A stretch of 64,000 nt of DNA from Thermodesulfobacteriota bacterium (GTDB lineage Bacteria > Desulfobacterota > Desulfobaccia > Desulfobaccales > 0-14-0-80-60-11): NCBI GenBank assembly GCA_040756315.1, contig JBFLZI010000001.1, forward strand, positions 2,461-66,460, written 5' to 3'. The notes beneath the pieces are model-generated. The model was not told the DNA's origin, did not search any database, and saw only the letters and a list, made by a program, of their open reading frames with translations. This document shows positions 823 to 39,506 of this stretch, one piece after another. The translations under genes and the position numbers were made by a program. Each line of letters starts with the position of its first letter. Position 1 is the stretch's first letter.

Positions 823-1161
823 TTAGTCCTGTCTCCCATAGCACCAAAAAACTGCGGGGATGGTAACGTCACCGGCGGCGGCCACGTCCAGGGTCACTTT
901 GGCGGTCATGGCCCCCGCCACCAGGAGTTCCTTCTCCAGGTTGTGATTCTGGTTTTCGGCCTTGGCCCCGGAATTGTAGAATTCGTAACCGTCCTCATCT
1001 TCCAAGGTCAGGGTGGCGGTAGCGGCAGACCCGGGGATGGTGGGCACTCGCAGGTGCATCAGCCGGACCAGACCTTCCAACACCAGGGGCAAGGAGACCA
1101 CTTGGACCCCGTTCGCAAAGACGAAATTCAGTTTCTTCCTTAAAGCCTGTTCAGCCTTCAT
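823..1161 (-). CDS. hypothetical phage protein
   Basis: 112-aa ORF overlapping the end of the giant ORF by 4 nt. High GC3. No motif recognised. Confidence 0.45.
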   Translation of the reverse strand: MKAEQALRKKLNFVFANGVQVVSLPLVLEGLVRLMHLRVPTIPGSAATATLTLEDEDGYEFYNSGAKAENQNHNLEKELLVAGAMTAKVTLDVAAAGDVTIPAVFWCYGRQD

Positions 1162-10100: not shown

Positions 10101-12998
10101 GGTTTGGGTCGGCAATCGGGCAATGAGTCCTTCAAGTTTAACGATCACCTTGGCAGGTTTGTCTGCATGAGGATTGAAGATTTCCGGCTTACTTTGAATA
10201 TATTGATTGACCCCCAACTCCATGGCATCATAGGCATCCTTGGGAGTGTATTTCCCTTCCGCTTGGGTGCCGCCATAGCTTCTGTCGGCCCAAGCGAAAA
10301 GTTCTTGTGGAGTAATTGGATCCTTAGTTAAATCCAAGAATCCTTTAACCACGCCAGCAATGCGCTTATAAGGTGCTCTTGAAGGTTCAGGAACAGTAAC
10401 CGCCTTTTGGGGCGGCGCAATCCCCGGGGGCAAAGCAGCTTTCCGTTTCGGCTCTTCTCTAAAAAGTTCAGCCTGTTTGGTCTCAGGATATTCCTCCATA
10501 ACTTCAAGAGGAACGGCTTTGCCAGCTTTGTGGGCCTGCAATACTTCCTGGCGGTGAAATTCCAGTTTGGCAGCCTCGGGACTATCGAAATAGATCTCGC
10601 CCGTCTCTGGGTTGGTTAGTAAAGGACCATCTTCGCCTCTTTGGATGGTGACCCTTCCCTGAGAGTCCATTCTCCAATTGGCGACCGGTTCCCCCTCCAC
10701 TTCGGAAAAGAACCATCCTTGCTCGTCCTCTTCCTCCCAGGAATCCAGGAATTCATTCTTGCCCATCTGGTAAGGTTGCCGATATTCTTCTTCCGTGCCA
10801 GGTGCAGCAGAGACAGGACCTTCCTCTTCTGTCGGGCCCGGCGGAACCTCGAACTGCTGTAAGAACGCTTCCATCTTCCCCGGCACGGCATAGGCCACCG
10901 TGGACTGATACCGGGGATGCTCCGGGTCTTCTATGTTGTAAAGCAGCAGCCCGGCGTCTTTCATCTGCCCGGCGTAACTCAACTGCTCCGGGGCCACGCC
11001 GTTTTGCTGAGCGGCCACTTGACGGCCCTGCTCAATAAGCTCGGTGGTCAATCCCGGGGCTGCTTCCGGGGCCTTGACAGGCTCTTCAGGGGTAGGGGTA
11101 ATTACTGGCCCCTCCATTTTAGGGGCCTCCACGGGCATCCCAGGGGGTCGTTTTGTCTCCGGGGCGGCCTGTTCCGCCGCCTCTGCCCCCATCACCCCCA
11201 TGGGCGGGGCGGGGCCAGCCGGTTTGGTCGGCTCCGGGACGGCCCTTTCTGGTGAAGGGGGAGCACCAGGAGGTGCCGCCTCTGCCGCCCCCGGAGCCGG
11301 TATTTCCGGTTTTCTTGCCTGTTCCGCCGCTTCTGCGCCGGAGACCCCCAGGGGAGGCTCCACCACGGGCCGGGGACCTCCAAAGGCCGGGGGCAAGGGC
11401 CGCCTAATGGGCCTGCCCTGTTGATCCACCAATGGCGGTCGGGGAGCTTCCGGACGCCCTTCTAGGGCTTCCCGGCCTTCTCGCAGCCCACGTTCTACCA
11501 GTAACTTTTCATAGGCGTTTCGTTCCCAGGGTTGCTTGGCCAAGGCCGCTTCAAACTCATCCGCTGGCCGCAGGGGCCTTCCAGCAGGCCCCAGAATCTC
11601 CGGCGTCCCCGGGGGGGCCGGTTCGGTAATGGCCGGGGGCCTTCCTTCTTCCGGCAATCTCCCTACATACTCATACCCCGGCAGCACTTCTTCCCTGGGT
11701 GCCGGTGGTGTCACCCTCGCTGGTTCCATGGCCAGGGGCTGGGCCATCCCTGCCTGAATGGTGGGACCGGTGCGGTAAATGGGGAAACCTTCCCGGCCTT
11801 CCGGGACGGCGGCTTGCTCCTCTTTAGCTCCCGCCACTGTTGTTGCAATACGCTCTCTTATGGCCCGGGCCGACCGATGCGCGGCCACTCCCGCCCCGCT
11901 GAGGCCCCCCATGGCCGCGCCCACCAGCACCGCTTCCACCACGTTTTCCGTGAGCTTTTGGTCCGGGTCATAGCCCCACTTACGGAAGGCGTTGCCCACG
12001 ATTTCCTGGGCCCCTTCGGTGGTTCCTTCCGTGGCGATGCTGTCCAGAACCTTATGAACCAGGTTTTGACCGTTCTTGCCCCGGAAGATGCGCTCCAGGG
12101 AAAAGGCTTCCAGGCTGCCGGCCACGATGCCTTTGCCCAGTTCCACCGCCACCCGGCGCCCCCAACTGATAGGCTTGTCCGGGTGCTCTTTTTCCCATTG
12201 GCGCAGGTTGGCTTCCGCCTCCGCTGCTTCCAGGCCCATGGCCGCGGCATAACCGCTGCGGGTGTAGATTTTGTTGATCTTGCCGGCAATCTGGGCCGCT
12301 TCTTCCGACGTCTGGCCCCCTTTTAAGGCCTTCCCCAGACCCATCACTTTTTTGGCCAGGGCCCCCAGGCCAGCCCCATAAAGGAAATATTCGCCGATGC
12401 TCCAGGCTGCTTCCGGCAGACGGGCCGCCCAAAAATGAGGGTTTTTGATGGTTTCGGCCACCTGCCCGGCCACTTCCCCCGGGGCCTCCAGGATCCGGTG
12501 CAGTTCCACCTGGGATTCCGCCGCCTTGGAAGGGCGTAATTCGGGAGATTCCTGGATGGCCTCCAGGGCCTCAATGGGACGAGTCAAGGCGCGCCGCACG
12601 GGACCGATATTCAGGACATCTCCGGCGATGATCTTGGCGGCTTGCAGGGGGAATTTAACCACCTCCAGCGCGCCCCGTCCCACCCCAGCAGCAAATTCCC
12701 CGGCTACCGTCCTCTCCGGCACCGGTTCCTCCAGGCGCAACCGCCTGAGCGCCCCCTCATAGATTTCCTGGGAGCGTCTTTGCTCTTCCGGCGACAAGGC
12801 CTCAAAGGGGACGGGGGCCTCTCCCGGGGGAAGATCCCACCTGGTGGGGGCCGGTTTGGCCAAGCCCGGTTCTCCTTCGGGTATCGCTGGGGCCGCGAGA
12901 GCAATCGAAACAGGCTTCTCCCTCTCCGGTTCCGGAGGTGGAGGAGTCCAAAAGTTCCGGATTCTTTCCAACTCGCTTTCAAAAAGTTCCGGGGACAT
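1158..12998 (-). CDS. giant polyvalent protein (methyltransferase + SF2 helicase + two zincin motifs), 3,946 codons as written; see frame anomaly at 9014-9453
   Basis: Uninterrupted ORF. Motifs: VLEPSAGVGG / NPPF, GDGTGVGKGR / DESH / HRSNQ, HEVFH, HELGH. Glycine-zipper-like N-terminal region and Pro/Ala/Glu-rich linkers. Last gene of the virion operon. Confidence 0.65.
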   Translation of the reverse strand: MSPELFESELERIRNFWTPPPPEPEREKPVSIALAAPAIPEGEPGLAKPAPTRWDLPPGEAPVPFEALSPEEQRRSQEIYEGALRRLRLEEPVPERTVAGEFAAGVGRGALEVVKFPLQAAKIIAGDVLNIGPVRRALTRPIEALEAIQESPELRPSKAAESQVELHRILEAPGEVAGQVAETIKNPHFWAARLPEAAWSIGEYFLYGAGLGALAKKVMGLGKALKGGQTSEEAAQIAGKINKIYTRSGYAAAMGLEAAEAEANLRQWEKEHPDKPISWGRRVAVELGKGIVAGSLEAFSLERIFRGKNGQNLVHKVLDSIATEGTTEGAQEIVGNAFRKWGYDPDQKLTENVVEAVLVGAAMGGLSGAGVAAHRSARAIRERIATTVAGAKEEQAAVPEGREGFPIYRTGPTIQAGMAQPLAMEPARVTPPAPREEVLPGYEYVGRLPEEGRPPAITEPAPPGTPEILGPAGRPLRPADEFEAALAKQPWERNAYEKLLVERGLREGREALEGRPEAPRPPLVDQQGRPIRRPLPPAFGGPRPVVEPPLGVSGAEAAEQARKPEIPAPGAAEAAPPGAPPSPERAVPEPTKPAGPAPPMGVMGAEAAEQAAPETKRPPGMPVEAPKMEGPVITPTPEEPVKAPEAAPGLTTELIEQGRQVAAQQNGVAPEQLSYAGQMKDAGLLLYNIEDPEHPRYQSTVAYAVPGKMEAFLQQFEVPPGPTEEEGPVSAAPGTEEEYRQPYQMGKNEFLDSWEEEDEQGWFFSEVEGEPVANWRMDSQGRVTIQRGEDGPLLTNPETGEIYFDSPEAAKLEFHRQEVLQAHKAGKAVPLEVMEEYPETKQAELFREEPKRKAALPPGIAPPQKAVTVPEPSRAPYKRIAGVVKGFLDLTKDPITPQELFAWADRSYGGTQAEGKYTPKDAYDAMELGVNQYIQSKPEIFNPHADKPAKVIVKLEGLIARLPTQTRRTGESDEFQQFSTPPPLAYIVSWVANINQNDVVLEPSAGVGGLAVFAHNAGAKEVIVNELSPRRAELLREMGFDRVFTENAEQLNNILPKEVRPTVVVMNPPFSATAGRMLGKRMAQMGATHLEQALKRLEPGGRLVAIVGRGMAFDKPAFATWWAKIKKEYQVLANIGVSGKNYGKYGTNFDNQILVIDKTGPTTREPVVGAVEKLADLIPLLEGVKDERLRQVLAREREAQPGTAPEPVGEAGPEEGGRIRGTRPTARPATPGVGPGEREGERATPGRLAPEPVLPVALPEGDRGSHGQLEPGERHAGVRGERGGRRGASGEPHAGRPSGVGGGIGGPTGQPTGRGEIIPGSVRGPVRLEEKKAARPSGELTDAIYEPYQPQRLKVSGAQPHPGWLVQSAAMAAVEPPAPTYKPHLPKEVIDTGKLSESQLEAVVYAGQSHQDILPDGQRRGFFIGDGTGVGKGREIAGIIYDNWNQGRKKAAWISKSTALFKDARRDIEGVGWKPDLVFDLGKIKADSDIKNSQGILFTTYDTLKSAAQAPKGEEVKGKRRLDQIVEWLGEDFDGVVIFDESHEMGSGRSEKGARGYKKPSQKALAGMELQKKLPKARIVYVSATGATKVGNLAYAERLGLWGEGTPFPNREAFISEIESGGVAAMELVARDMKALGVYLARSLAFEVPSQPDQTVTYDRLVHNLTDHQVAIYNEMARAWQVVLQNIHEALRLTEGENSPQARAKAASQFWGSHQRFFNQVITSMQMPSVLEAIKKDLAEGNAVLVQLTNTLEAAQERGLARMADEEELDGLDLTPREALMQYVEHAFPTTQFEPYLDEEGNEKWRAVKDSQGNPVQNAEAVRMKEELLEKLGAIRVPDSPLDMLVNTFGPEAVAEATGRKRRLVKFGGETVLEKRGRAKVEADIGAFLSDKKQILVFSDMAGTGRSFNASYEFKNQRKRIHYGVQLGWRADMAVQKMGRSHRSNQRFAPHYVLVSTNLDGQKRFLSSIARRLDQLGALTKGQRQTGSTGLFQAKDNLEASHAKDALRQFYYELYRGEIPGMNIGTFMEQTGLRLLDKDGNLLQELPPITQFLNRLLSMEVQEQNRTFAAFAERLERAAEVAARRGTLDIGMETLRPDPGGRIEKISEQTVYTDPRTGAETKYVEVDEINPTKIREFEEAEKVGGSKPAFFKNVRSGRIWVREAKSWNDTSESGRVTQYWTLRGVLSRSVRDVEDYHFWDKSKWDLIKDRAIAKQMWQAEIAKAPKEQVERHHLIAGTILPIWDRLTGNTRVIRLQTREGERFIGRRIPERVIGQVLQNLGAKSTTAAKLTPQQVFTNILDSNYVVTLANGWEIKRSRVSGEDRIELKGPDFAHMEELRRAGVFAERIQWDTRFFIPTTEAGPGVIEKIIKHRPVVAATPRAISKARLTIQEDENLRRGAAAMERVISEQTDVPVAMRRDDLGDISFYWGEPGNPAKDFKGGYGVSHIIAKRNAEGEDGEAIARKMVEVIAKGEFRKESGPEGGQRVEIGFDKHIAILSKYRFGEREAWLLTGWREAAPGEPEKVYGSIRPTHKGPTRFRPSMGAGAEEIISPAGKKGKVPTVTKDTIQAAFGPRAKVTESALMPDVHEVTLPNGVRILVRQNADIQVAPEALAAYGKTELARGEVIAGEWRTINGTNLISLAKGEGAESLHHEVFHAAMELALTERERQAVLRKYGNEEAAARAYETWIPEKQPETLFQKILNFFRQIYRAFFPDAEAVFGKMRTGEVWGRKGRLPEGIAPRAKIKEAPGPQEVIDRFKREVVALDQEAARNWRERLKQGWEGFKGLTEDFYSQVVDRWAAWERVAQKAAQAGIAVPAGENVTYNLSFLRGVEGRVRQGISGDYVYHDTLEFDEKLDRLVFTGDAPEAVGPSLVKRLEPLKDLAQKRGESFAQVSGDLFHALMPAQRDLELAGETGVREPGEIKGTHPELSRAALAALKQKYSADYAVLEETAEAMREWGDQMILQPLLQVGFIDQARYEDIKAKNQFYVPFKRLLDDMETYISAHASAAGVKGRVIKKIKGSERQILDPLEMWMELAYKAQFAYARNKVYRGLYVTAQYAEMEDVKEIPAKFVPVDQTLKQEIDEKLRPQIEKLCQAIGVNVRMLYTLGGRVLGRFKAGMRREAGGAYGPEEREIEVRFATTEKVLSHELGHAIDHLANLEDLLINRGTPEMKRELRKIADQRIGEAQVSDYFRRYVRKKEEQVAEFVNRFLTDRETARTLAPNATAVFEKFLQGNEELKPLLDFKPTAQRQLREFYHKIWVRSPLPPEPGCLPYYRDGLMRWLKVPPDLYQAAVNMMPGDIGILMRVAKLPADTLRAGAILVPEFSLGRNPVRDIMQAWLFSRFGFNPAYWWRDTFKLLAKDEQAREFHRQWEAGGGELATLAQAFAKSNRVTADQILNPGKKIRYFAHPIQALRFASAYLENMTRFSIYKQAREKGLSHAEAIHEARRTTLDYSRVGGHPAVRYLGMIIPFFNASIQGIDKMASELAGPNRKAVLKRLTMLTAISLLVWAFASRDKRYKELEDWEKNYFWHLPLGEDGPMLRIPKPFEAGILFGSVPERMMEWALGQKPDMAATMKAVWEAAMPEVVPTIARPLLEMKANYDYFRGRPIEDVAMQRLPVSMRAKPWTTETAKAFSRHFGEPLGISPVMMEHFIRTLGGGLGANYFLPGVDLALRKAGVWEDIPKPAQDAIQQIWGVRAFFTRTPTGNRAKSVNDFFEHYQAAVQADQGWKVLWQQGKAGDLDKFLKEHPEAIFARVARLEMAQMGKLRKERDTIYAAKNLTPEEKQKKLDKIDAQLVVIARRANTFMDPAAAEKVGMPSRSLPGKGHKPIDAKQYYQVAAEATERAYRKLQPSFPRLSEMEAEERQRRIAGAIRTEREETARGLTAVSPRDLLKPFRPGALWDRPTKEEREQAFHIFGGFLKVPAPWMTGFRPSKEHQEARR
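3525..3554 (-). other. zincin HExxH motif 2 (SHELGHAIDH) in the giant ORF
   Basis: HELGH read directly. Confidence 0.45.
5031..5048 (-). other. zincin HExxH motif 1 (LHHEVFHAAMELAL) in the giant ORF
   Basis: HEVFH read directly. Context resembles the metallopeptidase modules of phage/plasmid polyvalent proteins. Confidence 0.45.
7050..8990 (-). other. strawberry-notch/SNF2-like superfamily-2 helicase module of the giant ORF
   Basis: Walker A GDGTGVGKGR (8700-8729), DESH box (8358-8384), C-terminal lobe with MGRSHRSNQ (7161-7175). N-terminal HPGWLVQSAAMAAVEPP segment is typical of this helicase family. Confidence 0.75.
9014..9442 (-). CDS. 142-aa ORF nested in the +1 frame of the giant ORF (helical, unknown function)
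   Basis: ATG 6 nt after GGAGGGGG. An in-frame TAA sits two codons upstream of the ATG (one AAG codon between). G/C at the third codon position is 27/30 in this frame versus 9/30 in the giant frame over the same 30 codons. The balanced protein (MNAYAKYWHEREKLNQ...) contrasts with G/P/R filler in the giant frame. Confidence 0.55.
   Translation of the reverse strand: MNAYAKYWHEREKLNQERPLNQLAKQALKRAGESVEPGQLHVLQLLEWALENGKVKGPPQDALHLSQFYRWHFLKETVEAMGNWNPENVMQVFEESAEGDAGLQANLMPEDPVELAEELVDQLDSRLGAARLYPDQFGVPSD
9510..10090 (-). other. N6-adenine DNA methyltransferase module of the giant ORF
   Basis: Motif I VLEPSAGVGG (~9975-10003) and motif IV NPPF (9789-9800) in gamma-class order. Confidence 0.75.
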
Positions 12999-28247: not shown

Positions 28248-29177
28248 TTACGCGCTGCCGATGCGCATGATCTTGGCCTCGCCGTCGTTGGCGGTTTCCC
28301 AGACGGACCCGAAGGCCAGGATGCCCCGCCAGGCCAGGGCCTTGGTGCGGCCAAAGTCGGACTGGTAATTGGGGTCCGCATAAAGCTGCGGGGTTTCCAC
28401 CTCAATGCGGGCCACGGCCTCGTCGCCGAAGACCACGGCTTCACCTAAGGCCGTGGAACTCCCGGCGGTGTTGGATAACGCCTGCGCCCGGTTGATCTCC
28501 ACCCAGCGGATGCGCTCGGTCTTGCCCTGTTCTCCCAGGAAGAACAAATCCCCCTTCTGGAGATAGAGGTGGACCTGCTGCCAGAGGCGGTCCGTCTTCA
28601 GGGAACGCAGGTTCTTGTTGCAGGACAGGCCGATGAAGTCCTCCCCTTCATAGGGCGGGCAATGGATGGTGTCCGCCAGATAGTCGGCCAGCAGGCCGCA
28701 GTGGTCGAAGGTGAGGCCGGCGGTGGCCGTGCCCCCGGGAGTGCCAGTGGTGTAAAAGGTGCCCCCGGTCAGGCTGGTGGGGACGAAGACGATGGGCACC
28801 GTGGCGGGGTCCAAAAAGGCCTTGGCCGCGGTGGTGTCCAGAGCCCGCTCCATCTGCCGGATGAGGGCCTTCTGCAACAGGTTCCGGGGGTTGAACTGCC
28901 CCAGTTGCTCGTGCAGGTTGGTGTATTCCACCCCCCGGCCATATTCCGCCACCCGGAAGACCCGGTTGCCATATTGCAGCTTGTCGATGGGAATGAGGGT
29001 GTCCTCTTCCAGTTGCGCGCTGGTGGGGTCCGGCAGTTCCTTGATGTGCATCAGGTTGACGTATTCGCCCTTGTGCTTCCCGAAGCCGATGCCGAAGTCC
29101 TGGGTAAAGGGCAGGATTTTGCACTTGCCCAGGGACTTCTCCAGGAGCTTCTTGCTCAGGAAGTTATTCTTGTAGAC
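28248..29177 (-). CDS. major capsid protein, exon 2
   Basis: Sits after the scaffold gene. The track ORF starts at ATG 29051, but 42 further in-frame GC3-rich sense codons with no start codon extend to 29177, ending at the predicted 3' splice site. Confidence 0.7.
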   Translation of the reverse strand, partial: VYKNNFLSKKLLEKSLGKCKILPFTQDFGIGFGKHKGEYVNLMHIKELPDPTSAQLEEDTLIPIDKLQYGNRVFRVAEYGRGVEYTNLHEQLGQFNPRNLLQKALIRQMERALDTTAAKAFLDPATVPIVFVPTSLTGGTFYTTGTPGGTATAGLTFDHCGLLADYLADTIHCPPYEGEDFIGLSCNKNLRSLKTDRLWQQVHLYLQKGDLFFLGEQGKTERIRWVEINRAQALSNTAGSSTALGEAVVFGDEAVARIEVETPQLYADPNYQSDFGRTKALAWRGILAFGSVWETANDGEAKIMRIGSA

Positions 29178-29862
29178 CAGTTAATCCCGCCTGTCGCCAG
29201 GGGGCCGGACTATACCATAACCTCTTGAATCTCAACCTTAGAAAGGTCCAGAATTCCAGAGGTCCTCCTTGGTAGTCTCTGGAGGCTGAATCGACGCTGC
29301 TTCAATGCCTTCAATTCTTCGCTTAACATGGCGAATCTTTCTCTTAGAATGCTCATGTTGCGTCCATTGTTACAGCCCTTCATTGGATGGACGCACAGAC
29401 GCCATTTAATAAACTTCATCATGGCCTGCGCCTCTTCTTTTTTGGCTGTCAAATAAGGCATTGTTTTGGAAAGAATCCTCATTATTCCCCTATAATTTGT
29501 TATTGCCATCGCTAATGATTCCCTATATTGAACTTCACGAGGCTTTATGTAGATTAGAAAGTATTTAACTTTCCATGTTGTCAGGATTTCAGTAATTCGC
29601 CTCATCAAATAGGGATTCGTATTTCTTATTTCAAACCTGGGGCGATAATGAGCAACGTCTCCATTGTGATTCCTGTTATGGCTTACTGAGATACATCCTT
29701 CCCCATCGATAATCCCAGCAAGCCAAGCAGCATCGCGTTCATCCCTGCTGATTGACCCCACCGAACCATTTTCACGCTCTGGTAGGTTCGGATACTCGGG
29801 TTGTTCCAGCACATTCGGAGTTTTCACCATAAAGTCACCTTTATGGGCGGCGTCTAAAGTTC
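29178..29862 (-). ncRNA. group I self-splicing intron (phage td-like appearance) in the capsid gene
   Basis: P GAAUGUGCUGGAAC, Q GUCAAUCAGCAGGG, R CCAGAGACUACC and S AUGGUAUAGUCC occur in order with P4 and P7 complementarity. P2 CCAUAAAG-GUGA-CUUUAUGG. P9 has a GCGA loop. P1 U.G pair, P10 GUCUA/UAGAC and a terminal G are present. GC is ~42% versus ~62% in the flanks. Confidence 0.75.
29210..29830 (-). CDS. LAGLIDADG homing endonuclease (single-motif type)
   Basis: 206 aa with LAGIIDGEG (29696-29722), a low-GC ORF inside the intron. The true start may be an internal GVG GTG. The ATG and its AAAGGUGA lie in the P2 stem. Confidence 0.75.
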   Translation of the reverse strand: MVKTPNVLEQPEYPNLPERENGSVGSISRDERDAAWLAGIIDGEGCISVSHNRNHNGDVAHYRPRFEIRNTNPYLMRRITEILTTWKVKYFLIYIKPREVQYRESLAMAITNYRGIMRILSKTMPYLTAKKEEAQAMMKFIKWRLCVHPMKGCNNGRNMSILRERFAMLSEELKALKQRRFSLQRLPRRTSGILDLSKVEIQEVMV

Positions 29863-29904
29863 ACCGACTGCGGCGTCGAACGCCCAATTAAATGCGCCAG
29901 ACAT
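29863..29904 (-). CDS. major capsid protein, exon 1 (14 codons)
   Basis: AAGGAGG, then 7 nt, then ATG, immediately after the scaffold stop. Encodes MSGAFNWAFDAAVG and ends with U at the predicted 5' splice site. Confidence 0.65.
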
Positions 29905-29916
29905 GGTTTATCCTCC

Positions 29917-30972
29917 TTAGATGACCCTCCTTTCCAGTTGTTTCTCCAGGAGGGTGCCCATGGTTTCGGGTTTTTCTCCTTCCTTGGGAGGCGGACGGTA
30001 ACCGCTGCCGCCCCTTTCCAGGACTGCATGTTCCTGATGAACCTCGGCGGGTTTGGGAGTGGGCGGAGAAGGCGGCGTTTGGCCGGCAATCTCCTCCTTC
30101 ATGCGCCGGGCTTCCTTAATGGTCCAGTTGACCTGTTCCTTGAAGGGCAGGTTGGGCGCAAACCGGGCATTACCCCAGAAAAGGAGGTAATCCGGAGACC
30201 CGGGTTTCATGTCCAGGCCCGCCTCACTGGCCATCTGCATGGCCAGAGTTTCCGCCTCGCCTTGGCCGCCAGCAGGCTCCGGTTGCGGCGGCGGGGCTGC
30301 CGCTGGACTAGCTTTGAGCTTTTCTTCCACCCGCCGGTCCACAATGGCGGCGATGGTCTGCTCATCCAGCGGGGCCCCCACGCCCACTTTTTTCCAGATT
30401 TTGGCGGCCTTCTTGTAATAATCCGGGTCATAGGGATCAATTTCGCTGATCTCCTGTAGGCCCCGGGCAATGGCCGCTTCCTGTTCCTCCTCGGTCATTT
30501 GGGGCGGGACCGGAGGCTTTTCCTCCGGGGCGGCCGGCTTGGCCTTAAGCTCTTCCAGCTCCCGGCGCAGGGCCTCCGTTTCTTCCCGGGCCTTTTTGGC
30601 CTCTTCCGCCTTTTCGTGGGCCATGCGCTCGGCTTCTTTGTAGCCGAGCTCCGCGGCCCGGTGGTCCCGGTATTTGGGCTTGAAATCCCAACCCGGGGGC
30701 AACTCTTCCCCTCCCTCCGGCGGCGTGGCCGGCGGCGGAGTCCCGCCATCCGGGGGGACCGCACCAGGAGTTTCCGAAGCCTTCTCGCTGGGACCCTCGG
30801 GCTCTTCTGGCGGCGTCTCTTCCGCCACATCAGCCGGGTGGCCGGTATAAATGCGGCGTTCCTGAAGGGCGCTTAAGGACGCCCCCAGAGAACCTTCCTC
30901 CTCCGCGTTCACCGGCTCCACCGGACGCCCGCCGGGCGTATCCATTCCGGGCTTCTCTCCTTCTTGGCTCAT
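29917..30972 (-). CDS. scaffolding protein
   Basis: 351 aa, acidic, Pro-rich with a central coiled coil. Lies between portal and capsid. Confidence 0.6.
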   Translation of the reverse strand: MSQEGEKPGMDTPGGRPVEPVNAEEEGSLGASLSALQERRIYTGHPADVAEETPPEEPEGPSEKASETPGAVPPDGGTPPPATPPEGGEELPPGWDFKPKYRDHRAAELGYKEAERMAHEKAEEAKKAREETEALRRELEELKAKPAAPEEKPPVPPQMTEEEQEAAIARGLQEISEIDPYDPDYYKKAAKIWKKVGVGAPLDEQTIAAIVDRRVEEKLKASPAAAPPPQPEPAGGQGEAETLAMQMASEAGLDMKPGSPDYLLFWGNARFAPNLPFKEQVNWTIKEARRMKEEIAGQTPPSPPTPKPAEVHQEHAVLERGGSGYRPPPKEGEKPETMGTLLEKQLERRVI

Positions 30973-33627: not shown

Positions 33628-33899
33628 GGCGACCCTCCTCCTTCTTCAACGCCGGGCCGGTCCCAGCGGATGCGGTCATAGTTTTCCCGGTATCTGTCGC
33701 TGACATGGCGACAGTTGGCCAAATCCCCGGTGGGGTAAGGCGGCTCCCCGTTCCACCCCTTCTCCCCCGGGTCGTAAATTTCCCCGGTGACCATGTTCCG
33801 GAACACTTCCTTGCCCTGCTTCACCCCGTCCCTGTCCTTGCCGGTGTATTGCCTGACCTCCCACCAGCCCTTAAAGCCGCCGGTTTCAAGTTCGGGCAT
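33615..33899 (-). CDS. hypothetical 94-aa protein
   Basis: ATG overlaps the terL stop (TAATG). The upstream part of the track ORF (to 34220) is out of frame inside terL. Confidence 0.45.
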   Translation of the reverse strand: MPELETGGFKGWWEVRQYTGKDRDGVKQGKEVFRNMVTGEIYDPGEKGWNGEPPYPTGDLANCRHVSDRYRENYDRIRWDRPGVEEGGGSPCPQ

Positions 33900-35317
33900 T
33901 ACCGCGTCCCTCCGATGGCGTAAGTCTGGACCCGGCGGCGGGTCTGTTGGGCCAAACGCCGGTAGGTGGCCAGAGAGGCCTTGGTGCCGATGGTGGGCAG
34001 CAGGACGCACACCCCGTTGGCGAAGCAGTCCCCCACATGGCTGGCCTCGTCCTTCTCCGGCACGTTGCTGACGATGTTGCCGGAGTTGTCCGTTTTGTAA
34101 TGCCAGGCGCCGGCCAGGGCCCGGTGCAGCAGTTTCGCCTGCGGATTGATCTGAATGGCGGGCAGGCCCTGAATGTTCATGCCGAAGGCGTTTTTCAGGC
34201 CCAGTTTGATGATGTCCCACTTGTGGGGGCCGGGCTCGAAGCGGGTATTGAAGGCATCCTCAATTACCCGGGCGGCGGTTTCCTGGCGGTTGCTCTGGTC
34301 CGGCTGGCGCATAGTGAAGTCCCCCACGTCCCGCCAGGCCCGGGCCTTGTTCTTCCAGCGGGGGCTTTCCAAAAGGGGCCTGACCTGGGTATTGGCCAGG
34401 ATGCGGATGTCGCTGTTTTCCAGTCTGAGGACGTCGATGAAGATGAGGCGGCCGATGCTGGTGATCTGGCCCAGGATGCAACAGGGGTTGTGCCAGGAGT
34501 CCCAGAGCCGGAAGGAGACCAGGCCGGCAGCCGGCTCTAAAGCGATAGGCGACAGATGCAGGTAAGGGTTGTATTCCGGAGTGACCTTGGCCCCCCGGTA
34601 GATGGGGGCGAACTGGCCCAAAGCATAGCGCATGAAGGAGGCCTGGTCGTGCTTATAGGCGGCGCGCACCGCCTGGCGGGAAGTCTCCGAAACATACGGG
34701 TTCTCGCCGGGCTCGATGCGGAACACGGCTTTGGTGATCAGGGGATTGTCTGGGTCGATGACCTCCGGCTCGATGATGCGCTTGAAAGTCCAATGCTCCT
34801 CATCCGCCGGGTTCATGGAAATTTGCAGGCGGGGCCGGGCGCCTTTCTGCCGGGTGCAGCGCACCAAAGCGGCGTTGAACACCTCCTCCGAGAGCCCGGC
34901 ATTGACCCGGTCCGCCATGGGGGCCGGTTCCTCCAGCCAGATGAGGGCGTATTCCGGACCCTGGAGCTTGGAAAGGCTGCCCAGGTCGTCGATGCCGAAA
35001 AGGTCGCAATCCACCCGGGGCTTGGAATAAATGGTGAGTTGCTTGAAGTCGTTGCGAAATTTAATGAGGTGGGGGTGTTCTTCAAAGATTTCTATAATAG
35101 AACGTGCCGTGGAAGTCTTAATATTTTCGTGGGTATCACGGACAACGGCGCATCTTATTGGTTTGCCGCAGCGTTTGGCATGTTTGACCATGCCGGCAAC
35201 TGAAGCAAATGTCTTTCCTTCGCCGGTGTTACTGTAGATTAAGTTAACAACAGCTTCAGAATTGGCATAAAGACCCTGAGTATCGCCAAGGTCAAAATGA
35301 AGAGGCCCCTCGCTCAT
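33899..35317 (-). CDS. terL: terminase large subunit
   Basis: Walker A SNTGEGKT, Walker B LIWLEE, and a C-terminal nuclease-like half with conserved acidic residues. 472 aa. Confidence 0.8.
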   Translation of the reverse strand: MSEGPLHFDLGDTQGLYANSEAVVNLIYSNTGEGKTFASVAGMVKHAKRCGKPIRCAVVRDTHENIKTSTARSIIEIFEEHPHLIKFRNDFKQLTIYSKPRVDCDLFGIDDLGSLSKLQGPEYALIWLEEPAPMADRVNAGLSEEVFNAALVRCTRQKGARPRLQISMNPADEEHWTFKRIIEPEVIDPDNPLITKAVFRIEPGENPYVSETSRQAVRAAYKHDQASFMRYALGQFAPIYRGAKVTPEYNPYLHLSPIALEPAAGLVSFRLWDSWHNPCCILGQITSIGRLIFIDVLRLENSDIRILANTQVRPLLESPRWKNKARAWRDVGDFTMRQPDQSNRQETAARVIEDAFNTRFEPGPHKWDIIKLGLKNAFGMNIQGLPAIQINPQAKLLHRALAGAWHYKTDNSGNIVSNVPEKDEASHVGDCFANGVCVLLPTIGTKASLATYRRLAQQTRRRVQTYAIGGTR

Positions 35318-35349
35318 GCCTAAAGCGTGAAAAGAAAAAACGCCGGGGG

Positions 35350-35369
35350 CAAGTTTTAGCTAAAGCTTG
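35350..35369. promoter_or_regulatory. imperfect 20-bp palindrome (caagttttagctaaagcttg) overlapping the -35 box
   Basis: 18 of 20 positions are self-complementary around the central AGCT. Lies in the divergent terL / AbrB-like intergenic region. Confidence 0.4.
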
Positions 35370-35395
35370 ACACCGGCGCTTTTCTTTAAATAATT
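35367..35395 (+). promoter_or_regulatory. sigma70-like promoter for the plus-strand island operon
   Basis: TTGACA (35367-35372), 17 nt, ATAATT (35390-35395). Confidence 0.5.
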
Positions 35396-35432
35396 GCGGT
35401 AAAACTTTAAAAAAGGGCGGGGTTACTTTAAA

Positions 35433-35627
35433 GTGGAAAAAAATGACGTAGACAAAACTTTTTGTGACACGGGCCTGAAGCCTGCCACCCGTAAGGTGGT
35501 GGAAATCAGCGGCACCTTATATGTTTCCATCCCCAGGAAATTCGCCCAGGCCTTTCAGATCAGGGCCGGGGACCGCCTGATCTTGGTGCCGGGGTCGCCT
35601 ATCAGGATTCTTCCTTACGGAAAATGA
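35433..35627 (+). CDS. AbrB/MazE/SpoVT-type DNA-binding protein
   Basis: 64 aa. YVSIPRKFAQAFQIRAGDRLILV matches the swapped-hairpin pattern. GTG start. Confidence 0.6.
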   Translation: MEKNDVDKTFCDTGLKPATRKVVEISGTLYVSIPRKFAQAFQIRAGDRLILVPGSPIRILPYGK

Positions 35628-35630
35628 CCC

Positions 35631-36002
35631 ATGCCCCGGTTGCCTTTTCCCCTGGAGCATTATTTCGACTTGCGCAAACTGCGGAAGCACTGCCGGCGGC
35701 GGGGCCTGAACGGTTCCGCCCTGGGGCGGCTCCTGGGCCTGTCCCCCGGAGTTATGGCCTATTACTTAAGGGGAGGAGGGCCTCTGCCCCTCTACTGGTT
35801 CCGCCAGGTCTGCGCGGCCCTGGAGCTTGACCCCCTGGAGGTCTGCGAATTGCTGCGGCTACCCGTGCTGGACTGGGGGGAGGTGAACCGGTTCCGGGCC
35901 GCCTGCCGGCGGGCCGGCACCACGCCCTTCCAGGCCTTGCAGGACTTCCTCACGGTCTTTGTTCAGGAGGCCCGGGAGGCCAAAGAAGAGGAAGGCCCCT
36001 GA
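35631..36002 (+). CDS. XRE/Cro-type helix-turn-helix protein
   Basis: LNGSALGRLLGLSPGVMAYYLRGGGPLPLYWFRQVCAALELDP reads as an HTH. Starts 4 nt after the previous stop. Confidence 0.5.
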   Translation: MPRLPFPLEHYFDLRKLRKHCRRRGLNGSALGRLLGLSPGVMAYYLRGGGPLPLYWFRQVCAALELDPLEVCELLRLPVLDWGEVNRFRAACRRAGTTPFQALQDFLTVFVQEAREAKEEEGP

Positions 36003-36640: not shown

Positions 36641-36907
36641 TTGGATGTCTGTTGGAGGTTCTATGGGACGCTTTTCGGCTCTCCGCCCGGCCCCGCACCC
36701 GAACCGCTCAAGACCAGGGGCAAAAAGGCGACGGCCAAGGCCGACCCGGATGAGGATGCCAGGCTCCGGGCCGAATGCGCGAAGCTGGCGGAGGAGAAGA
36801 AGGTCCCCTGGGAGGAGATCGCCGGGTTCCCCCCCGGCGAGAGCCTGGACACCGTGCCGGGGTCGGCGCTCCCGGCGCTAAAGCCGTTCCTCTTGTCCCA
36901 AAGCTAA
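36641..36907 (+). CDS. hypothetical 88-aa protein
   Basis: AGGAG, then 5 nt, then a TTG start. High GC3 in this frame only. Confidence 0.45.
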   Translation: MDVCWRFYGTLFGSPPGPAPEPLKTRGKKATAKADPDEDARLRAECAKLAEEKKVPWEEIAGFPPGESLDTVPGSALPALKPFLLSQS

Positions 36908-36953
36908 ACAGCTATCCACATGGAAGTCCGGTTTCTGAGGCTGGGCTTTTTTC

Positions 36954-36983
36954 TTGACAAGTATCTTTTATAGATGCTAATCA
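36954..36983 (+). promoter_or_regulatory. candidate promoter of the cyclase gene
   Basis: TTGACA (36954-36959), 18 nt, TAATCA (36978-36983), in AT-rich DNA. Confidence 0.4.
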
Positions 36984-37090
36984 AAATTTATAAAAAAATC
37001 TAAAAATCTTTTATAATTACGTGGAATTTTTTCTGTCCCTAATTTCTTCTTGGATAAGATTCTTACATAATCTCGAAGGGAGTTGAGACT

Positions 37091-39103
37091 ATGGTAATCT
37101 CAAGGAAAGATAAGCTAAACAATATAAAGTGGGAAAAATATAGTGATTCTCAAGAGTTCAGAGAAAACGTAGAGAAAATTGTTCAAATTGCAATAGAAGA
37201 AGCTGATGCAGAGGTTGGGGTACTTTTTCTTACTCCGGATGGTTTTTTTCTAGAAGCCGCCCATTGGGAGAGAGTAACTCATGAGGCACCCCCGAAGCCA
37301 CCTGCATCTGAACTTCCAGAATACCGTTTGAATTGGAACGAAAAAGACCCTAAAAAACTTGATGGGATTACAGCTTATGTTGCCATTCATCAAAAGGTAG
37401 AAAATTTAAACCAAGATGAAGTCTTTGAGCACCCGGCATGGAAAGGAAAATGGGATGCAGTTTTTTTAGAGGGCGATCGTAAGAAATGTAAAGGAATACT
37501 TGCAATTCCAGTTAAAAGAAAAATAGAGAAAGGGAAGGGAATAGCACGGGTTCATGGGGTTCTAAAAGTTGAAAATCCTAAAAGAGCCACAACATATGGT
37601 CGATTTAAAGAAGAACATGTTAAAGCACTGGAGAAGTTAGCTGATACTATTGCAACCAAGTTGGATCAATTTCCTAATTTTTGGTGTAAATTTGTTCAAA
37701 CTCGAGCCGACATAAAGGTTTCATATCTGGTTGAATTAATGGGAAGAGGCAGGTCCATTAGATATAATATTTCTCAAGGATTAAATTATGTTATAAAGCT
37801 TTTTTCATGTTGGTTAGAATGCCAGACAGGGGTTCATCTCTTTTGGCATTATTGGAAAACCCCAGAATGTCATATCTTAAAGCCTTGGGACTTCGCTGCT
37901 GGAGAACATGAAAATAATCACACAGCTTTGGATAGATCCAATGCCGCAAAGTTAGTTGTCTGGTTAAGGAAATGGATTGGTCCAAAAATTGTGCAACCCG
38001 GATTGCCTATTGATGATGAACTATGGGACTTTCTCTTCCCCGGAATCCCCTATAAGCCACTGGTAGATATAATTCGCCTTAAGAAAGGTAGATATGACTT
38101 AGGAGTTCTTATTTTTCCGCGATCACCACTTTGGGAAAGCGATAATGGATCGATTGATGCCTTGCCATCTGACGATATGCAAATACTCGAAATCTTAACC
38201 CGCCTTACGATGAATGTTGTTTCAATTCTGGGACGTTTTATAGAAGACAAATACGATACCACTGGAGAAAGATACTTACCAAAGTATCGCCTAGGAAGAG
38301 CCCGAAAGACTTGTGCTTTCATGTTTGTTGATATTAGAAATTTTTCCCAGCTTATCCAAATACTTCGTATGATGAGAGAGCCACAACTAATAGAACCTTT
38401 CATGAATAGATATTGTGAAAGAATTGGTGAAATAATAGGAACGTCCCCAATTGGCAGAGTTGACAAATTTTTAGGAGATGGAGTGATTGCGATTTTTGGG
38501 GAAGATTTAGATGACCCTACAGAAAATTATAAAAAGATTGTCGTTGCAGTTAAATGTGCCTTTGATATGATTACCATGTTTGAAGAAATTTATAAGGGGT
38601 GGGTTAAAATTGGGATTGATAAGATAAGTAAACAATATCACAATGCCGATTTGGAAAAGGGATCTATCGAAACAAGTAAATATGAACGTTTCCATGATCT
38701 TAGAAATATTTTCAATGAAGACGTTCAAATTGACCTTGCAATCGGTATTAATATGGGTGAAGTATTTTTTGATTATTTTGGACATGGGAACTACAGAGAA
38801 TATACAGCTATTGGTGATCATGTGAATTTCACTCAAAGGTTGGAAGGAGCTGCTGGTAGATTCGATGAAAAAGAGCGGCGAAAGAGAGGGAATATTTTAA
38901 TAAGTCAAACAGCTTATTACCATTTGTATGAAAATGATTATCTTTTAAACAAAAAAGAGCCAATTTGGCTCAGCTTTGAGGGCTTCGGGTTCGTTTATCC
39001 GGTTTATGAGTTAGAATATACAGATTTAAACCATGAAAAGATAGCGAATACAATTAAAGAGCTTGAAAGGATGCTTAGGAACAAAAGAGAGGCCAGAGCA
39101 TAA
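37091..39103 (+). CDS. GAF-GAF-class III nucleotidyl (adenylyl-type) cyclase
   Basis: Cyclase motifs FVDIRNFS, KFLGDGVIAIFG, YTAIGDHVNFTQRLEG. N-terminal GAF pattern (AEVGVLFL...GILAIPV...VHGVLKVEN...EEHVKALEKLA) and a second GAF-like region. ~36% GC. Confidence 0.75.
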   Translation: MVISRKDKLNNIKWEKYSDSQEFRENVEKIVQIAIEEADAEVGVLFLTPDGFFLEAAHWERVTHEAPPKPPASELPEYRLNWNEKDPKKLDGITAYVAIHQKVENLNQDEVFEHPAWKGKWDAVFLEGDRKKCKGILAIPVKRKIEKGKGIARVHGVLKVENPKRATTYGRFKEEHVKALEKLADTIATKLDQFPNFWCKFVQTRADIKVSYLVELMGRGRSIRYNISQGLNYVIKLFSCWLECQTGVHLFWHYWKTPECHILKPWDFAAGEHENNHTALDRSNAAKLVVWLRKWIGPKIVQPGLPIDDELWDFLFPGIPYKPLVDIIRLKKGRYDLGVLIFPRSPLWESDNGSIDALPSDDMQILEILTRLTMNVVSILGRFIEDKYDTTGERYLPKYRLGRARKTCAFMFVDIRNFSQLIQILRMMREPQLIEPFMNRYCERIGEIIGTSPIGRVDKFLGDGVIAIFGEDLDDPTENYKKIVVAVKCAFDMITMFEEIYKGWVKIGIDKISKQYHNADLEKGSIETSKYERFHDLRNIFNEDVQIDLAIGINMGEVFFDYFGHGNYREYTAIGDHVNFTQRLEGAAGRFDEKERRKRGNILISQTAYYHLYENDYLLNKKEPIWLSFEGFGFVYPVYELEYTDLNHEKIANTIKELERMLRNKREARA

Positions 39104-39143
39104 TGTTCTATTAAATCATACAGTAATAATTTGAAAAAATAAT

Positions 39144-39215
39144 ATGTCCTGAATCAGACTTGATTTGACAGTATCCCTGTAGGTTAGTTTTTGTAACCTC
39201 TCTTCGTCTGACTTT
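39144..39215 (+). terminator. candidate intrinsic terminator after the cyclase gene
   Basis: TCAGAC...GTCTGA enclosing AGGTTA-N7-TAACCT, followed by CTTTTAGTTTTTT. Confidence 0.35.
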
Positions 39216-39254
39216 TAGTTTTTTAATTCGTGCCAAATAAAGGCTGGCCCCTTG

Positions 39255-39506
39255 TTAATCCATTCCCCCCACCCCCAGGGCCGCCGGTGTGTATTCCCGC
39301 AGCAACTCCCGGTTCGCCTTCCGGCAGCGCCCGCAAACATACCGGCCTACCACCTCCGCCCCGCACTTAAGACACTGCCGCACGGTCGAATCCGGAGGAT
39401 TTTCCACCACCGGCGCCTCCATGCAGGCTTCACACTCCCGCTGCCGCCCACTCGTGGGAATGAAATCCTCCCCGCAGGTCTCACATAGTCGGGGCCGATA
39501 GGCCAT
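39255..39506 (-). CDS. cysteine-rich zinc-ribbon protein
   Basis: 83 aa with four CxxC pairs (CETC, CEAC, CLKC, CGRC). Confidence 0.55.
   Translation of the reverse strand: MAYRPRLCETCGEDFIPTSGRQRECEACMEAPVVENPPDSTVRQCLKCGAEVVGRYVCGRCRKANRELLREYTPAALGVGGMD

Follow-up and report, generated by a model that had tools for sequence, protein, structure and literature searches.

The question raised by the locus described here is how a phage capsid gene can open with a Shine-Dalgarno (SD) sequence and an ATG, meet a stop after a few codons, and resume beyond an endonuclease reading frame as a protein for which the public record gives another start. The DNA analysed (the window) comprised 64,000 nt of contig JBFLZI010000001.1 from a Thermodesulfobacteriota bacterium (assembly GCA_040756315.1, positions 2,461 to 66,460). 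On its minus strand, a 351-aa scaffold-like gene ends with TAA at 29919-29917, and the capsid ATG (29904-29902) lies 7 nt past an AAGGAGG at 29918-29912; the 14 codons that it opens are followed by GAA, CUU and an in-frame UAG. The annotated capsid open reading frame (ORF), 28248-29051 with 267 aa, has its public start only at ATG 29051 and is preceded by 42 open codons that contain no ATG, GTG, TTG or stop. This arrangement had been pointed out in an initial annotation made from the sequence alone, and direct reading of the minus strand gave the same in each particular. The intervening DNA had been put at ~42% GC; it is indeed GC-poor, the second-deepest GC trough of the window, with a measured content of 44.7% that makes the earlier figure slightly low, against 62.4% in the downstream capsid exon and 63.4% in the upstream gene. 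The major capsid gene of this uncultivated tailed phage is split by a group I intron with its own homing endonuclease gene, an insertion overlooked by public annotation. Judged from its sequence, the intron is very probably competent for splicing, the gene that it carries being of the LAGLIDADG type.

Joining 29904-29863 to 29177-28248 gives a predicted ligated-exon junction ...GCAGUCGGU|GUCUACAAG... and a protein of 323 aa. With this product as the query 266 homologues were obtained, and nearly all of the best 120 were 319 to 324 aa long and covered 98 to 100% of it; several are labelled "N4-gp56 family major capsid protein" by JGI. The top match was the window's own deposited protein (P0001), a truncated call of 267 aa named "hypothetical protein" from a Thermodesulfobacteriota metagenome-assembled genome. 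More than 100 uninterrupted capsid homologues aligned to the spliced product without a gap. In a 23-sequence alignment the junction AAVG|VYKNN fell inside a gap-free block with the consensus NWTFDAxVGVYKNH, in which W7, G14 and N18 are invariant. At the protein level, both the site of the interruption and its phase are thus established, since the alignment to uninterrupted homologues is free of gaps. At the nucleotide level, an exhaustive listing of splice combinations gave three junctions that yield the identical protein, among which only U29863/G29178 places a U ahead of the 5′ splice site and a G ahead of the 3′ splice site. The splice points and the in-phase joining into 323 aa put forward in the initial annotation therefore hold, and the alignment to intron-less capsid homologues across the junction, which it proposed as a check, bears them out.

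These alignments also bear on the reading in which the insert is not removed, the capsid being the annotated 267-aa product from ATG 29051 and the 56 codons upstream of it a dead remnant. It agrees with the public annotation, which starts P0001 at that ATG, and with the missing Rfam match of the insert (see below). Yet all 56 of the 56 N-terminal residues align to uninterrupted homologues, with W7, G14, N18, S22, L25, F38, G51 and E52 invariant; the 42 codons 5′ of ATG 29051 are still open and free of start codons; and exon 1 retains its own SD sequence and ATG. Both exons are also intact in about ten intron-bearing relatives whose capsids are only 40 to 68% identical, and the capsid calls of these relatives are "truncated" at differing, arbitrary alternative start codons. 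An unspliced 267-aa capsid is thus disfavoured and very improbable.

The insert has the architecture of a group I intron, and this is supported by covariation. Its core elements P, Q, R and S read GAAUGUGCUGGAAC, GUCAAUCAGCAGGG, CCAGAGACUACC and AUGGUAUAGUCC, and their likeness to the textbook group I consensus is established knowledge (Cech/Michel). Helices P3 to P9 follow in canonical order, the P4-P6 domain being nested in P3 and P3/P7 forming the pseudoknot; P7 reads G-(A)-GACUA/UAGUCC, with a bulged nucleotide next to the G-binding pair. P, Q, R, S, P2, P9 and the guide lie within a few bases of where the initial annotation had placed them. Its group I assignment is borne out by the covariation, and its list of helices was incomplete in omitting P3, P5, P5a, P6/P6a/P6b and P8. 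The fold was drawn by hand and then tested on six full-length copies, with RNAalifold, and on ten ORF-trimmed copies. In the six full-length copies the 83 pairs were 91.2% paired, as compared with 37 to 45% when the 3′ partners were slid by 1 to 3 columns, and both sides had changed in 32 pairs versus 3 to 11 in the slid controls; none of 500 shuffles equalled the observed value. For the core (P2-P9) of the ten trimmed copies, pairing was 93.4% versus 36 to 50% in slid controls and 30 of 55 pairs were compensatory, again equalled by 0/500 shuffles. P3, P4 and P5 were each 100% paired in these ten sequences, with several compensatory pairs, and P2 and P9 had 6/7 and 5/7 compensatory pairs, respectively; P6b is peculiar to the window copy (69% paired across relatives). 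RNAalifold, applied to the ORF-trimmed sequences independently of the hand model, recovered P1-P6 including P5a, together with P8 and P9; it is unable to represent the P7 pseudoknot.

The guide sequence varies together with the exon with which it pairs. Since MAFFT mis-registers the members with insertion points displaced by +2 and +4 nt in the 10-sequence alignment, P1 and P10 were tabulated for each sequence. The pairs of guide and 5′ exon end were GCCG/CGGU, GCCC/GGGU, GCGCC/GGCGU and GCGUCCCU/AGGGACGU, so that the guide co-varies with the exon in 10/10 family members, and the remaining P1 pairs change compensatorily. The U.G pair is invariant in all six close members and in all ten members, and the terminal G is likewise present in 10/10. 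P1 consists of 4 exon bp and 1 intron bp in the window. Pairing in P10 reaches 100% among the six close members; 4 to 6 of 7 pairs form in eight members, and 2 to 3 of 7 in L058 and L059. Chance is excluded as a source of this structure, because the gap-free homologue alignment is joined by covariation across homologous copies.

The recurrence and layout of the insert also argue against an intein, a group II intron, a translational bypass or an assembly chimera, a set of explanations that is extremely improbable taken together. They come to mind since LAGLIDADG domains are also found in inteins and some group II introns (PMC3073962). An intein is ruled out, as the exon-1 frame is closed by UAG after two codons of the insert and a different frame (74 nt offset) encodes the endonuclease. 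For a group II intron, reverse transcriptase is lacking, the insert is only 685 nt long and the search gave no group II Rfam match; the same 685 nt far exceed any known bypass. The insert is not a chimera, because the same structure recurs in about ten independent assemblies.

Some observations weigh against the group I reading or qualify parts of it. No RF00028 match was obtained with Rfam 15 at the gathering threshold in the whole window, nor in the scan of all family loci, nor at E<=10 on 1 kb or on the 5′ and 3′ halves separately; an RF00028 match is the single test of group I membership in which the insert failed. In permissive mode T4 td reaches 40.3 bits (cutoff 50), unlike the window intron. 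P7 is invariant, so it is backed by complementarity and by identity with the classical R/S consensus, not by covariation. P1 of the window has only 4 exon base pairs. When the junctions of two divergent members (L010 and L042) were enumerated exhaustively, none satisfied the U/G rule and also gave back the consensus N-terminus. Splicing is predicted from sequence, not from RNA; the activity and target site of the endonuclease are likewise predicted, and its start codon may be AUG 29830 or an in-frame GUG at 29761, which matches the AUG of relatives (L028, L058 and L010).

The bearing of the Rfam result was judged with phage T4 (134000-148000, L057) as a control, where neither the proven td intron nor the proven nrdB intron was reported at gathering. 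The gathering-level negative is uninformative, because these two proven introns were also missed; for the same reason, the cmsearch with the Rfam group I model suggested in the initial annotation, which gave no match, was too strict a criterion. The permissive negative indicates a greater distance from the RF00028 seed for the intron family than for td. A negative Rfam result therefore counts for little against a phage group I intron that contains an ORF. The positions of the features are collected in Table 1.

Table 1. Coordinates of the interrupted capsid gene and of the intron, its helices and its endonuclease gene, in window numbering
Feature	Position	Strand	Remarks
Shine-Dalgarno AAGGAGG, capsid gene	29912..29918	-	Overlaps stop TAA (29917-29919) of scaffold-like gene; direct reading
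Capsid exon 1	29863..29904	-	14 codons, MSGAFNWAFDAAVG; last base U29863 is the U.G partner in P1
Group I intron	29178..29862	-	685 nt, G29862 to terminal G29178; junction by protein alignment; structure and covariation
Capsid exon 2	28248..29177	-	309 codons and stop; begins GUCUACAAG (VYK...)
Homing endonuclease gene, 206 aa, motif LAGIIDGEG	29210..29830	-	Single-motif I-CreI-type LAGLIDADG; stop UAG inside P7'
Internal guide UAGAC-GCCG	29848..29856	-	GCCG and preceding C pair with exon-1 CGGU|G (P1); UAGAC pairs with exon-2 GUCUA (P10)
P2 hairpin CCAUAAAG-GUGA-CUUUAUGG	29827..29846	-	Holds endonuclease SD-like AAGG(U)GA and AUG 29830-29828; -9.8 kcal/mol
5′ core	29738..29820	-	Covariation and independent RNAalifold prediction
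P3 5′ strand CUCC	29820-29817	-	
P element GAATGTGCTGGAAC	29816-29803	-	Exact location
P4 UGCUGG / P4' UCAGCA	29811-29806 / 29751-29746	-	
P5 ACCC / P5' GGGU	29801-29798 / 29758-29755	-	
P5a CCGAACC/GGUUCGG	29791-29785 / 29767-29761	-	
Q element GTCAATCAGCAGGG	29756-29743	-	Exact location
P6/P6a 5′ strand GGGAUGAA	29745-29738	-	
P6b GAUGCUGC/GCAGCGUC	29734-29727 / 29300-29293	-	Closes L6
L6 loop, 426 nt	29301..29726	-	Contains body of endonuclease ORF
3′ core	29207..29290	-	Includes J8/7; covariation
P6a'/P6' UUCAGCCU	29290-29283	-	
R element CCAGAGACTACC	29282-29271	-	Exact location
P7 5′ strand G-A-GACUA / P7' UAGUCC	29279-29273 / 29212-29207	-	Invariant
P3' GGAG	29268-29265	-	Abuts P8
P8 GACCUCU...AGAGGUU	29264-29258 / 29225-29219	-	
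S element ATGGTATAGTCC	29218-29207	-	Exact location
P9 hairpin, GCGA tetraloop	29186..29204	-	Followed by 8-nt tail to terminal G29178

Helices P7.1 and P7.2 define subgroup IA, which is usual in phage introns, including those of T4; td itself is an IA (IA2) intron with P7.1/P7.2 in the classification of Michel & Westhof. In the six aligned members these helices were not found, P3' (columns 617-620) being followed directly by P8 (column 621 onward) in 6/6, whereas td possesses them. Since P3' abuts P8, the subgroup is not IA. The GNRA loops of P2 and P9 and the missing P2.1 resemble the IC3 or IB types, a likeness by periphery that involves no subgroup model. A covariance model built from T4-type introns was rejected as uninformative, these being IA introns with a different periphery. 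In T4 introns, an early in-frame stop keeps ribosomes out of the core. Among the six close members of the present family, four have the stop of the exon-1 frame at intron nt 7-9 and two have it within P2, and by analogy such an early stop would keep ribosomes out of the ribozyme core.

The ORF inside the intron was identified as a LAGLIDADG homing endonuclease gene, as had been claimed, on the evidence of both Pfam (LAGLIDADG_1, PF00961, 28.9 bits vs cutoff 23.1) and Foldseek; NCBI likewise names the ORF product LAGLIDADG family homing endonuclease. The LAGLIDADG motif occurs once, and D42, G43, E44 and G45 are invariant among 26 homologues. Sequence matches in the PDB were weak and were all to LAGLIDADG enzymes. 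The AlphaFold2 model (mean pLDDT 80.8) showed an alpha-beta-beta-alpha-beta-beta-alpha core with helices at residues 29-44, 73-85 and 113-126 and strands at 45-53, 59-70, 91-95 and 105-110, preceded by 28 low-confidence residues that are encoded by P2-P5. The top 40 Foldseek matches were I-CvuI, I-CreI, I-MsoI and engineered forms of I-CreI, among them the I-DmoI/I-CreI chimera E-DreI; the probability was 1.00 and, for single-domain chains, the target TM was 0.63 to 0.70. I-CvuI, I-CreI and I-MsoI are homodimeric. The PHROG label "HNH endonuclease" (phrog_5046 / phrog_12980) was rejected, as it is contradicted by the Pfam match, the PDB sequence matches and the predicted fold, and appears to be wrong.

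The endonuclease ORF begins at intron nt 33, with its AUG on the 3′ side of P2, and ends at nt 653, with its UAG in P7'. About 195 nt of it double as ribozyme core, of which 104 nt belong to its 5′ end and 91 nt to its 3′ end, and 426 nt lie in L6; translation of the Q and R elements yields the conserved peptide motifs VGSIS and LQRLPR. With the ORF deleted, the core of the window intron measures 245 nt, and the trimmed construct with 15-nt exon flanks 275 nt. That the ribosome binding site (RBS) and AUG of the endonuclease lie inside P2, noticed already in the initial annotation, was seen in the window and is conserved in the six close relatives, in which an SD-like GAGG/GGAG, the GUGA loop and the AUG are all within P2 hairpins of -8 to -10 kcal/mol. 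Such a position in all six supports the notion that translation is controlled by structure. The ORF of L028 and L058, and by sequence reading that of L010 and L059, has its AUG in P5'/P4' instead. The 5′ extension of the ORF is therefore variable, as the "core creep" hypothesis predicts. The largest ORF-core overlap tabulated in a review was 81 nt (PMC3073962).

A pathway of splicing and homing can be proposed from these features. In the late capsid transcript the intron would fold and an external guanosine would attack after U29863; the freed 3′-OH of exon 1 would then attack after G29178, with exon 2 aligned by P10, and the exons would be ligated, the spliced mRNA being translated from AUG 29904. 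The endonuclease would be made at a low level from AUG 29830, its SD sequence and AUG being locked in the P2 stem. As a homodimer it might cut capsid alleles that lack the intron in co-infecting relatives, the conserved site being GGY-GTY-TAC-AAG-AA, and recombinational repair would copy the intron into the cut allele. In L001, the corresponding site of an intron-less allele reads GATGTAGGC|GTTTACAAGAACC; the pseudo-palindrome at the homing site is weak (7/11) and was not used. Both the mobility of the intron and the translational control of its endonuclease are inferred from these features. As for the lifestyle of the phage, there was evidence neither for nor against lysogeny, and the "induced lysogen" previously proposed as a source of RNA was an assumption.

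The same intron was found in at least nine further independent metagenomic phage contigs, at the same site or 2 to 4 nt away. The layout of a scaffold-like gene, a LAGLIDADG ORF of about 200 aa and a truncated capsid call was observed in L004/5, L006, L007, L008, L014, L028, L058, L059 and L060, which come from independent samples, and the endonuclease homologues (38 to 58% identical) all occur between a scaffold-like gene and an N-terminally short capsid ORF. With the spliced capsid as the tblastn query, exon 2 began at residue 15 in L004, L005, L006 and L007, and exon 1, where detected, ended at residue 14. A scan of three public collections with a 17-mer of the R element gave 48 loci, six of which were real members representing four distinct contigs (L010=L030, L014=L025, L028 and L042); the others were chance matches, e.g., within a retroelement integrase in L015, L016 and L020. 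Every short capsid homologue that was looked up proved to be an intron carrier (L058, L059, L060 and L061). A copy of the intron lacking an ORF was sought among the short capsid calls and none was found, each call with a complete upstream region having an ORF of about 190 to 204 aa; L061 keeps only a 68-aa ORF fragment at the contig edge, which has no Pfam match. The distribution of the intron is patchy: most capsid relatives lack it, including the closest ones (80% identity; L001-L003, P0002-P0004), and more distant ones carry it.

This distribution, considered together with the sequence of the ORF, bears on whether the intron still moves. It may be spliced but immobile or dependent on help, the LAGLIDADG protein acting mainly as a maturase or being a decaying or domesticated nuclease, with the spread of the intron due to vertical descent and losses and not to ongoing homing. 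It is common for LAGLIDADG proteins to be maturases of a bifunctional or degenerate kind (PMC3073962), the heavy ORF-core overlap restricts the free evolution of both, and the identities fall roughly in parallel (capsid 68, 60, 50 and 40%; endonuclease 58, 52-54, 53-54 and 44-45%), which is compatible with co-descent. Against this stand an intact ORF of about 170 to 206 aa in the members read from ATG to stop, a DGEG catalytic motif invariant in 26 homologues, and the intron-less state of the capsid relatives at 80% identity when distant ones have the intron, a pattern typical of homing gain or repeated loss. An immobile or helper-dependent intron is unlikely, and a mobile intron is the preferred reading.

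The insertion point is not the same in all members. Exon 1 of L008, L058 and L059 ends in GGCGU at a point 2 nt further downstream than in the window, with the guide GCGCC, and that of L028 ends in GGGACGU, 4 nt further downstream, with a P1 of 8 bp and the guide GCGUCCCU; the spliced proteins of all four restore G-V/T-Y-K. The divergent L010 (3940-4720) and L042 (2340-3120) have 60 to 90 extra nt, forming extra helices, between the 5′ exon and P3. In L061 (1-300), the FDAEVGVYK codons are contiguous, which leaves the insertion site of the window intron empty; the 3′ end of another intron was observed about 19 nt upstream, with the S element AAGAUAUAGUCU, further hairpins and then ...GAACG|GUUCGAU. 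L061 appears to carry a different, possibly unrelated intron, and the first 15 or so capsid codons may be a hot spot for introns.

Introns in phage capsid genes are known from several systems. The major capsid gene of mycobacteriophage LittleE contains an intron with an I-CreI-like LAGLIDADG gene (gp14), and RT-PCR together with N-terminal sequencing showed that this intron is spliced (Pope et al. 2013, PMC3706429), and a capsid-gene intron is documented in lactococcal phage Tuc2009 (PMC3706429). Group I introns also occur in the capsid gene of crAss-like Delta and Zeta phages (PMC7886860), and Jug phages have thousands of group I introns and some LAGLIDADG genes (PMC12880540). To call a LAGLIDADG gene in a phage capsid-gene intron unusual, as had been done in the initial annotation, was therefore an overstatement. 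The LittleE intron resembles that of the window in its host gene, its I-CreI-related gene, an exon 1 ending in U and an intron ending in G. By its description, however, its endonuclease gene is on the opposite strand, whereas the window ORF reads in the sense direction and shares nucleotides with the core at either end; moreover, the LittleE intron (~820 bp) was called "most likely group I" with no structure given, whereas the structure of the window intron is supported by covariation, and LittleE is a temperate siphovirus of an actinobacterial host. The crAss-like and Jug phages are, like that of the window, metagenomic phages with introns in core genes, genes for LAGLIDADG endonucleases/maturases and fragmented annotation; compared by description, they differ in infecting Bacteroidota and in having unrelated capsid families. 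Their introns were found via endonuclease domains in crAss-like phages and via subtype covariance models in Jug phages.

The T4 td intron with I-TevI is similar to the window intron in splitting a phage protein gene, in an ORF that loops out of P6 and runs with its 3′ end into P6a/P7, and in an early in-frame stop. Its P2 hairpin (UAUAAG-GUGA-CUUAUA) and S element (GAUAUAGUCU) are close to those of the window, as are the S and P elements of T4 nrdB. The RBS of the td endonuclease is also sequestered in a hairpin (PMC3073962), which is located in the P6 loop, whereas that of the window is in P2. I-TevI is a GIY-YIG enzyme, whereas the window enzyme is of the LAGLIDADG type, and ORF and core overlap by 20 nt in td versus about 195 nt in the window. 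In the large-subunit rDNA intron of Synechococcus lividus, a LAGLIDADG ORF overlaps P6/P7/P3/P8/P9 by 81 nt (PMC3073962, Table 1); by this description, both are bacterial-type group I introns with a LAGLIDADG ORF overlapping the core, but the S. lividus intron has an rRNA host gene and its ORF in P8, whereas the window intron has a translated phage gene and its ORF in P6. The window intron is thus not new in kind and would not surprise a specialist, the details of moderate interest being the sharing of about 195 nt between ORF and core, the +2/+4 nt shifts of the splice site and the missing P7.1/P7.2.

Whether the family forms an uncatalogued lineage of compact phage group I introns, escaping Rfam and set apart by its core overlap, moved insertion point and hot spot, is a tentative proposal to which slightly less than an even chance may be given. 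Under it, about three quarters of the ribozyme core may also be protein-coding, an extreme case of core creep; the 5′ extension may have occurred in one sub-family (AUG in P2) and not in another (AUG in P5'/P4'); and re-tuning of its guide may have allowed the intron to shift by 2 and 4 nt within the capsid gene.

The current understanding of group I introns is unchanged by these findings, and their use lies in annotation and in model building. The deposited record and about ten related contigs show a truncated capsid and a stray endonuclease, and recognition of the intron restores the 323-aa capsid, with a rule for correcting other records, namely to look for a short capsid call preceded by an ORF of about 200 aa. 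The family is a clean case of a group I intron invisible to the generic Rfam model, and the 10-sequence structural alignment could seed a better one. It also provides natural series for the study of an endonuclease ORF and a ribozyme that share nucleotides, of RBS sequestration in a core helix as a coupling of splicing to endonuclease expression, and of guide adaptation when an insertion point shifts by a few bases.

Other features of the window were noted. The product of the 3,946-aa ORF at 1158-12998 (-) is polyvalent and combines a helicase of the Strawberry-notch-like type (AAA_34, Helicase_C_4) with LPD38, a nuclease domain (PBECR1) and a segment resembling a methyltransferase. An N4-like phage, supposed at first from this ORF, was rejected, as Pfam indicated a polyvalent helicase/nuclease and the match to N4-type virion RNA polymerase was marginal. 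In the terminase large-subunit ORF (33899-35317, -), Terminase_3 covers residues 25-234 and a weak Amidase_2 match covers residues 389-469, and the GC content dips locally to 52% at 34800-35800; possible explanations are a fusion, an erroneously joined ORF and a further insertion. The deepest low-GC island of the window (36800-39400, 35 to 43% GC vs about 60%) contains a single ORF (37091-39103, +, 670 aa) on the strand opposite to its neighbours, with an adenylate/guanylate cyclase catalytic domain (PF00211, 37 bits, above the cutoff) and a weak GAF domain; it resembles a nucleotide-cyclase signalling gene that a phage genome acquired recently.

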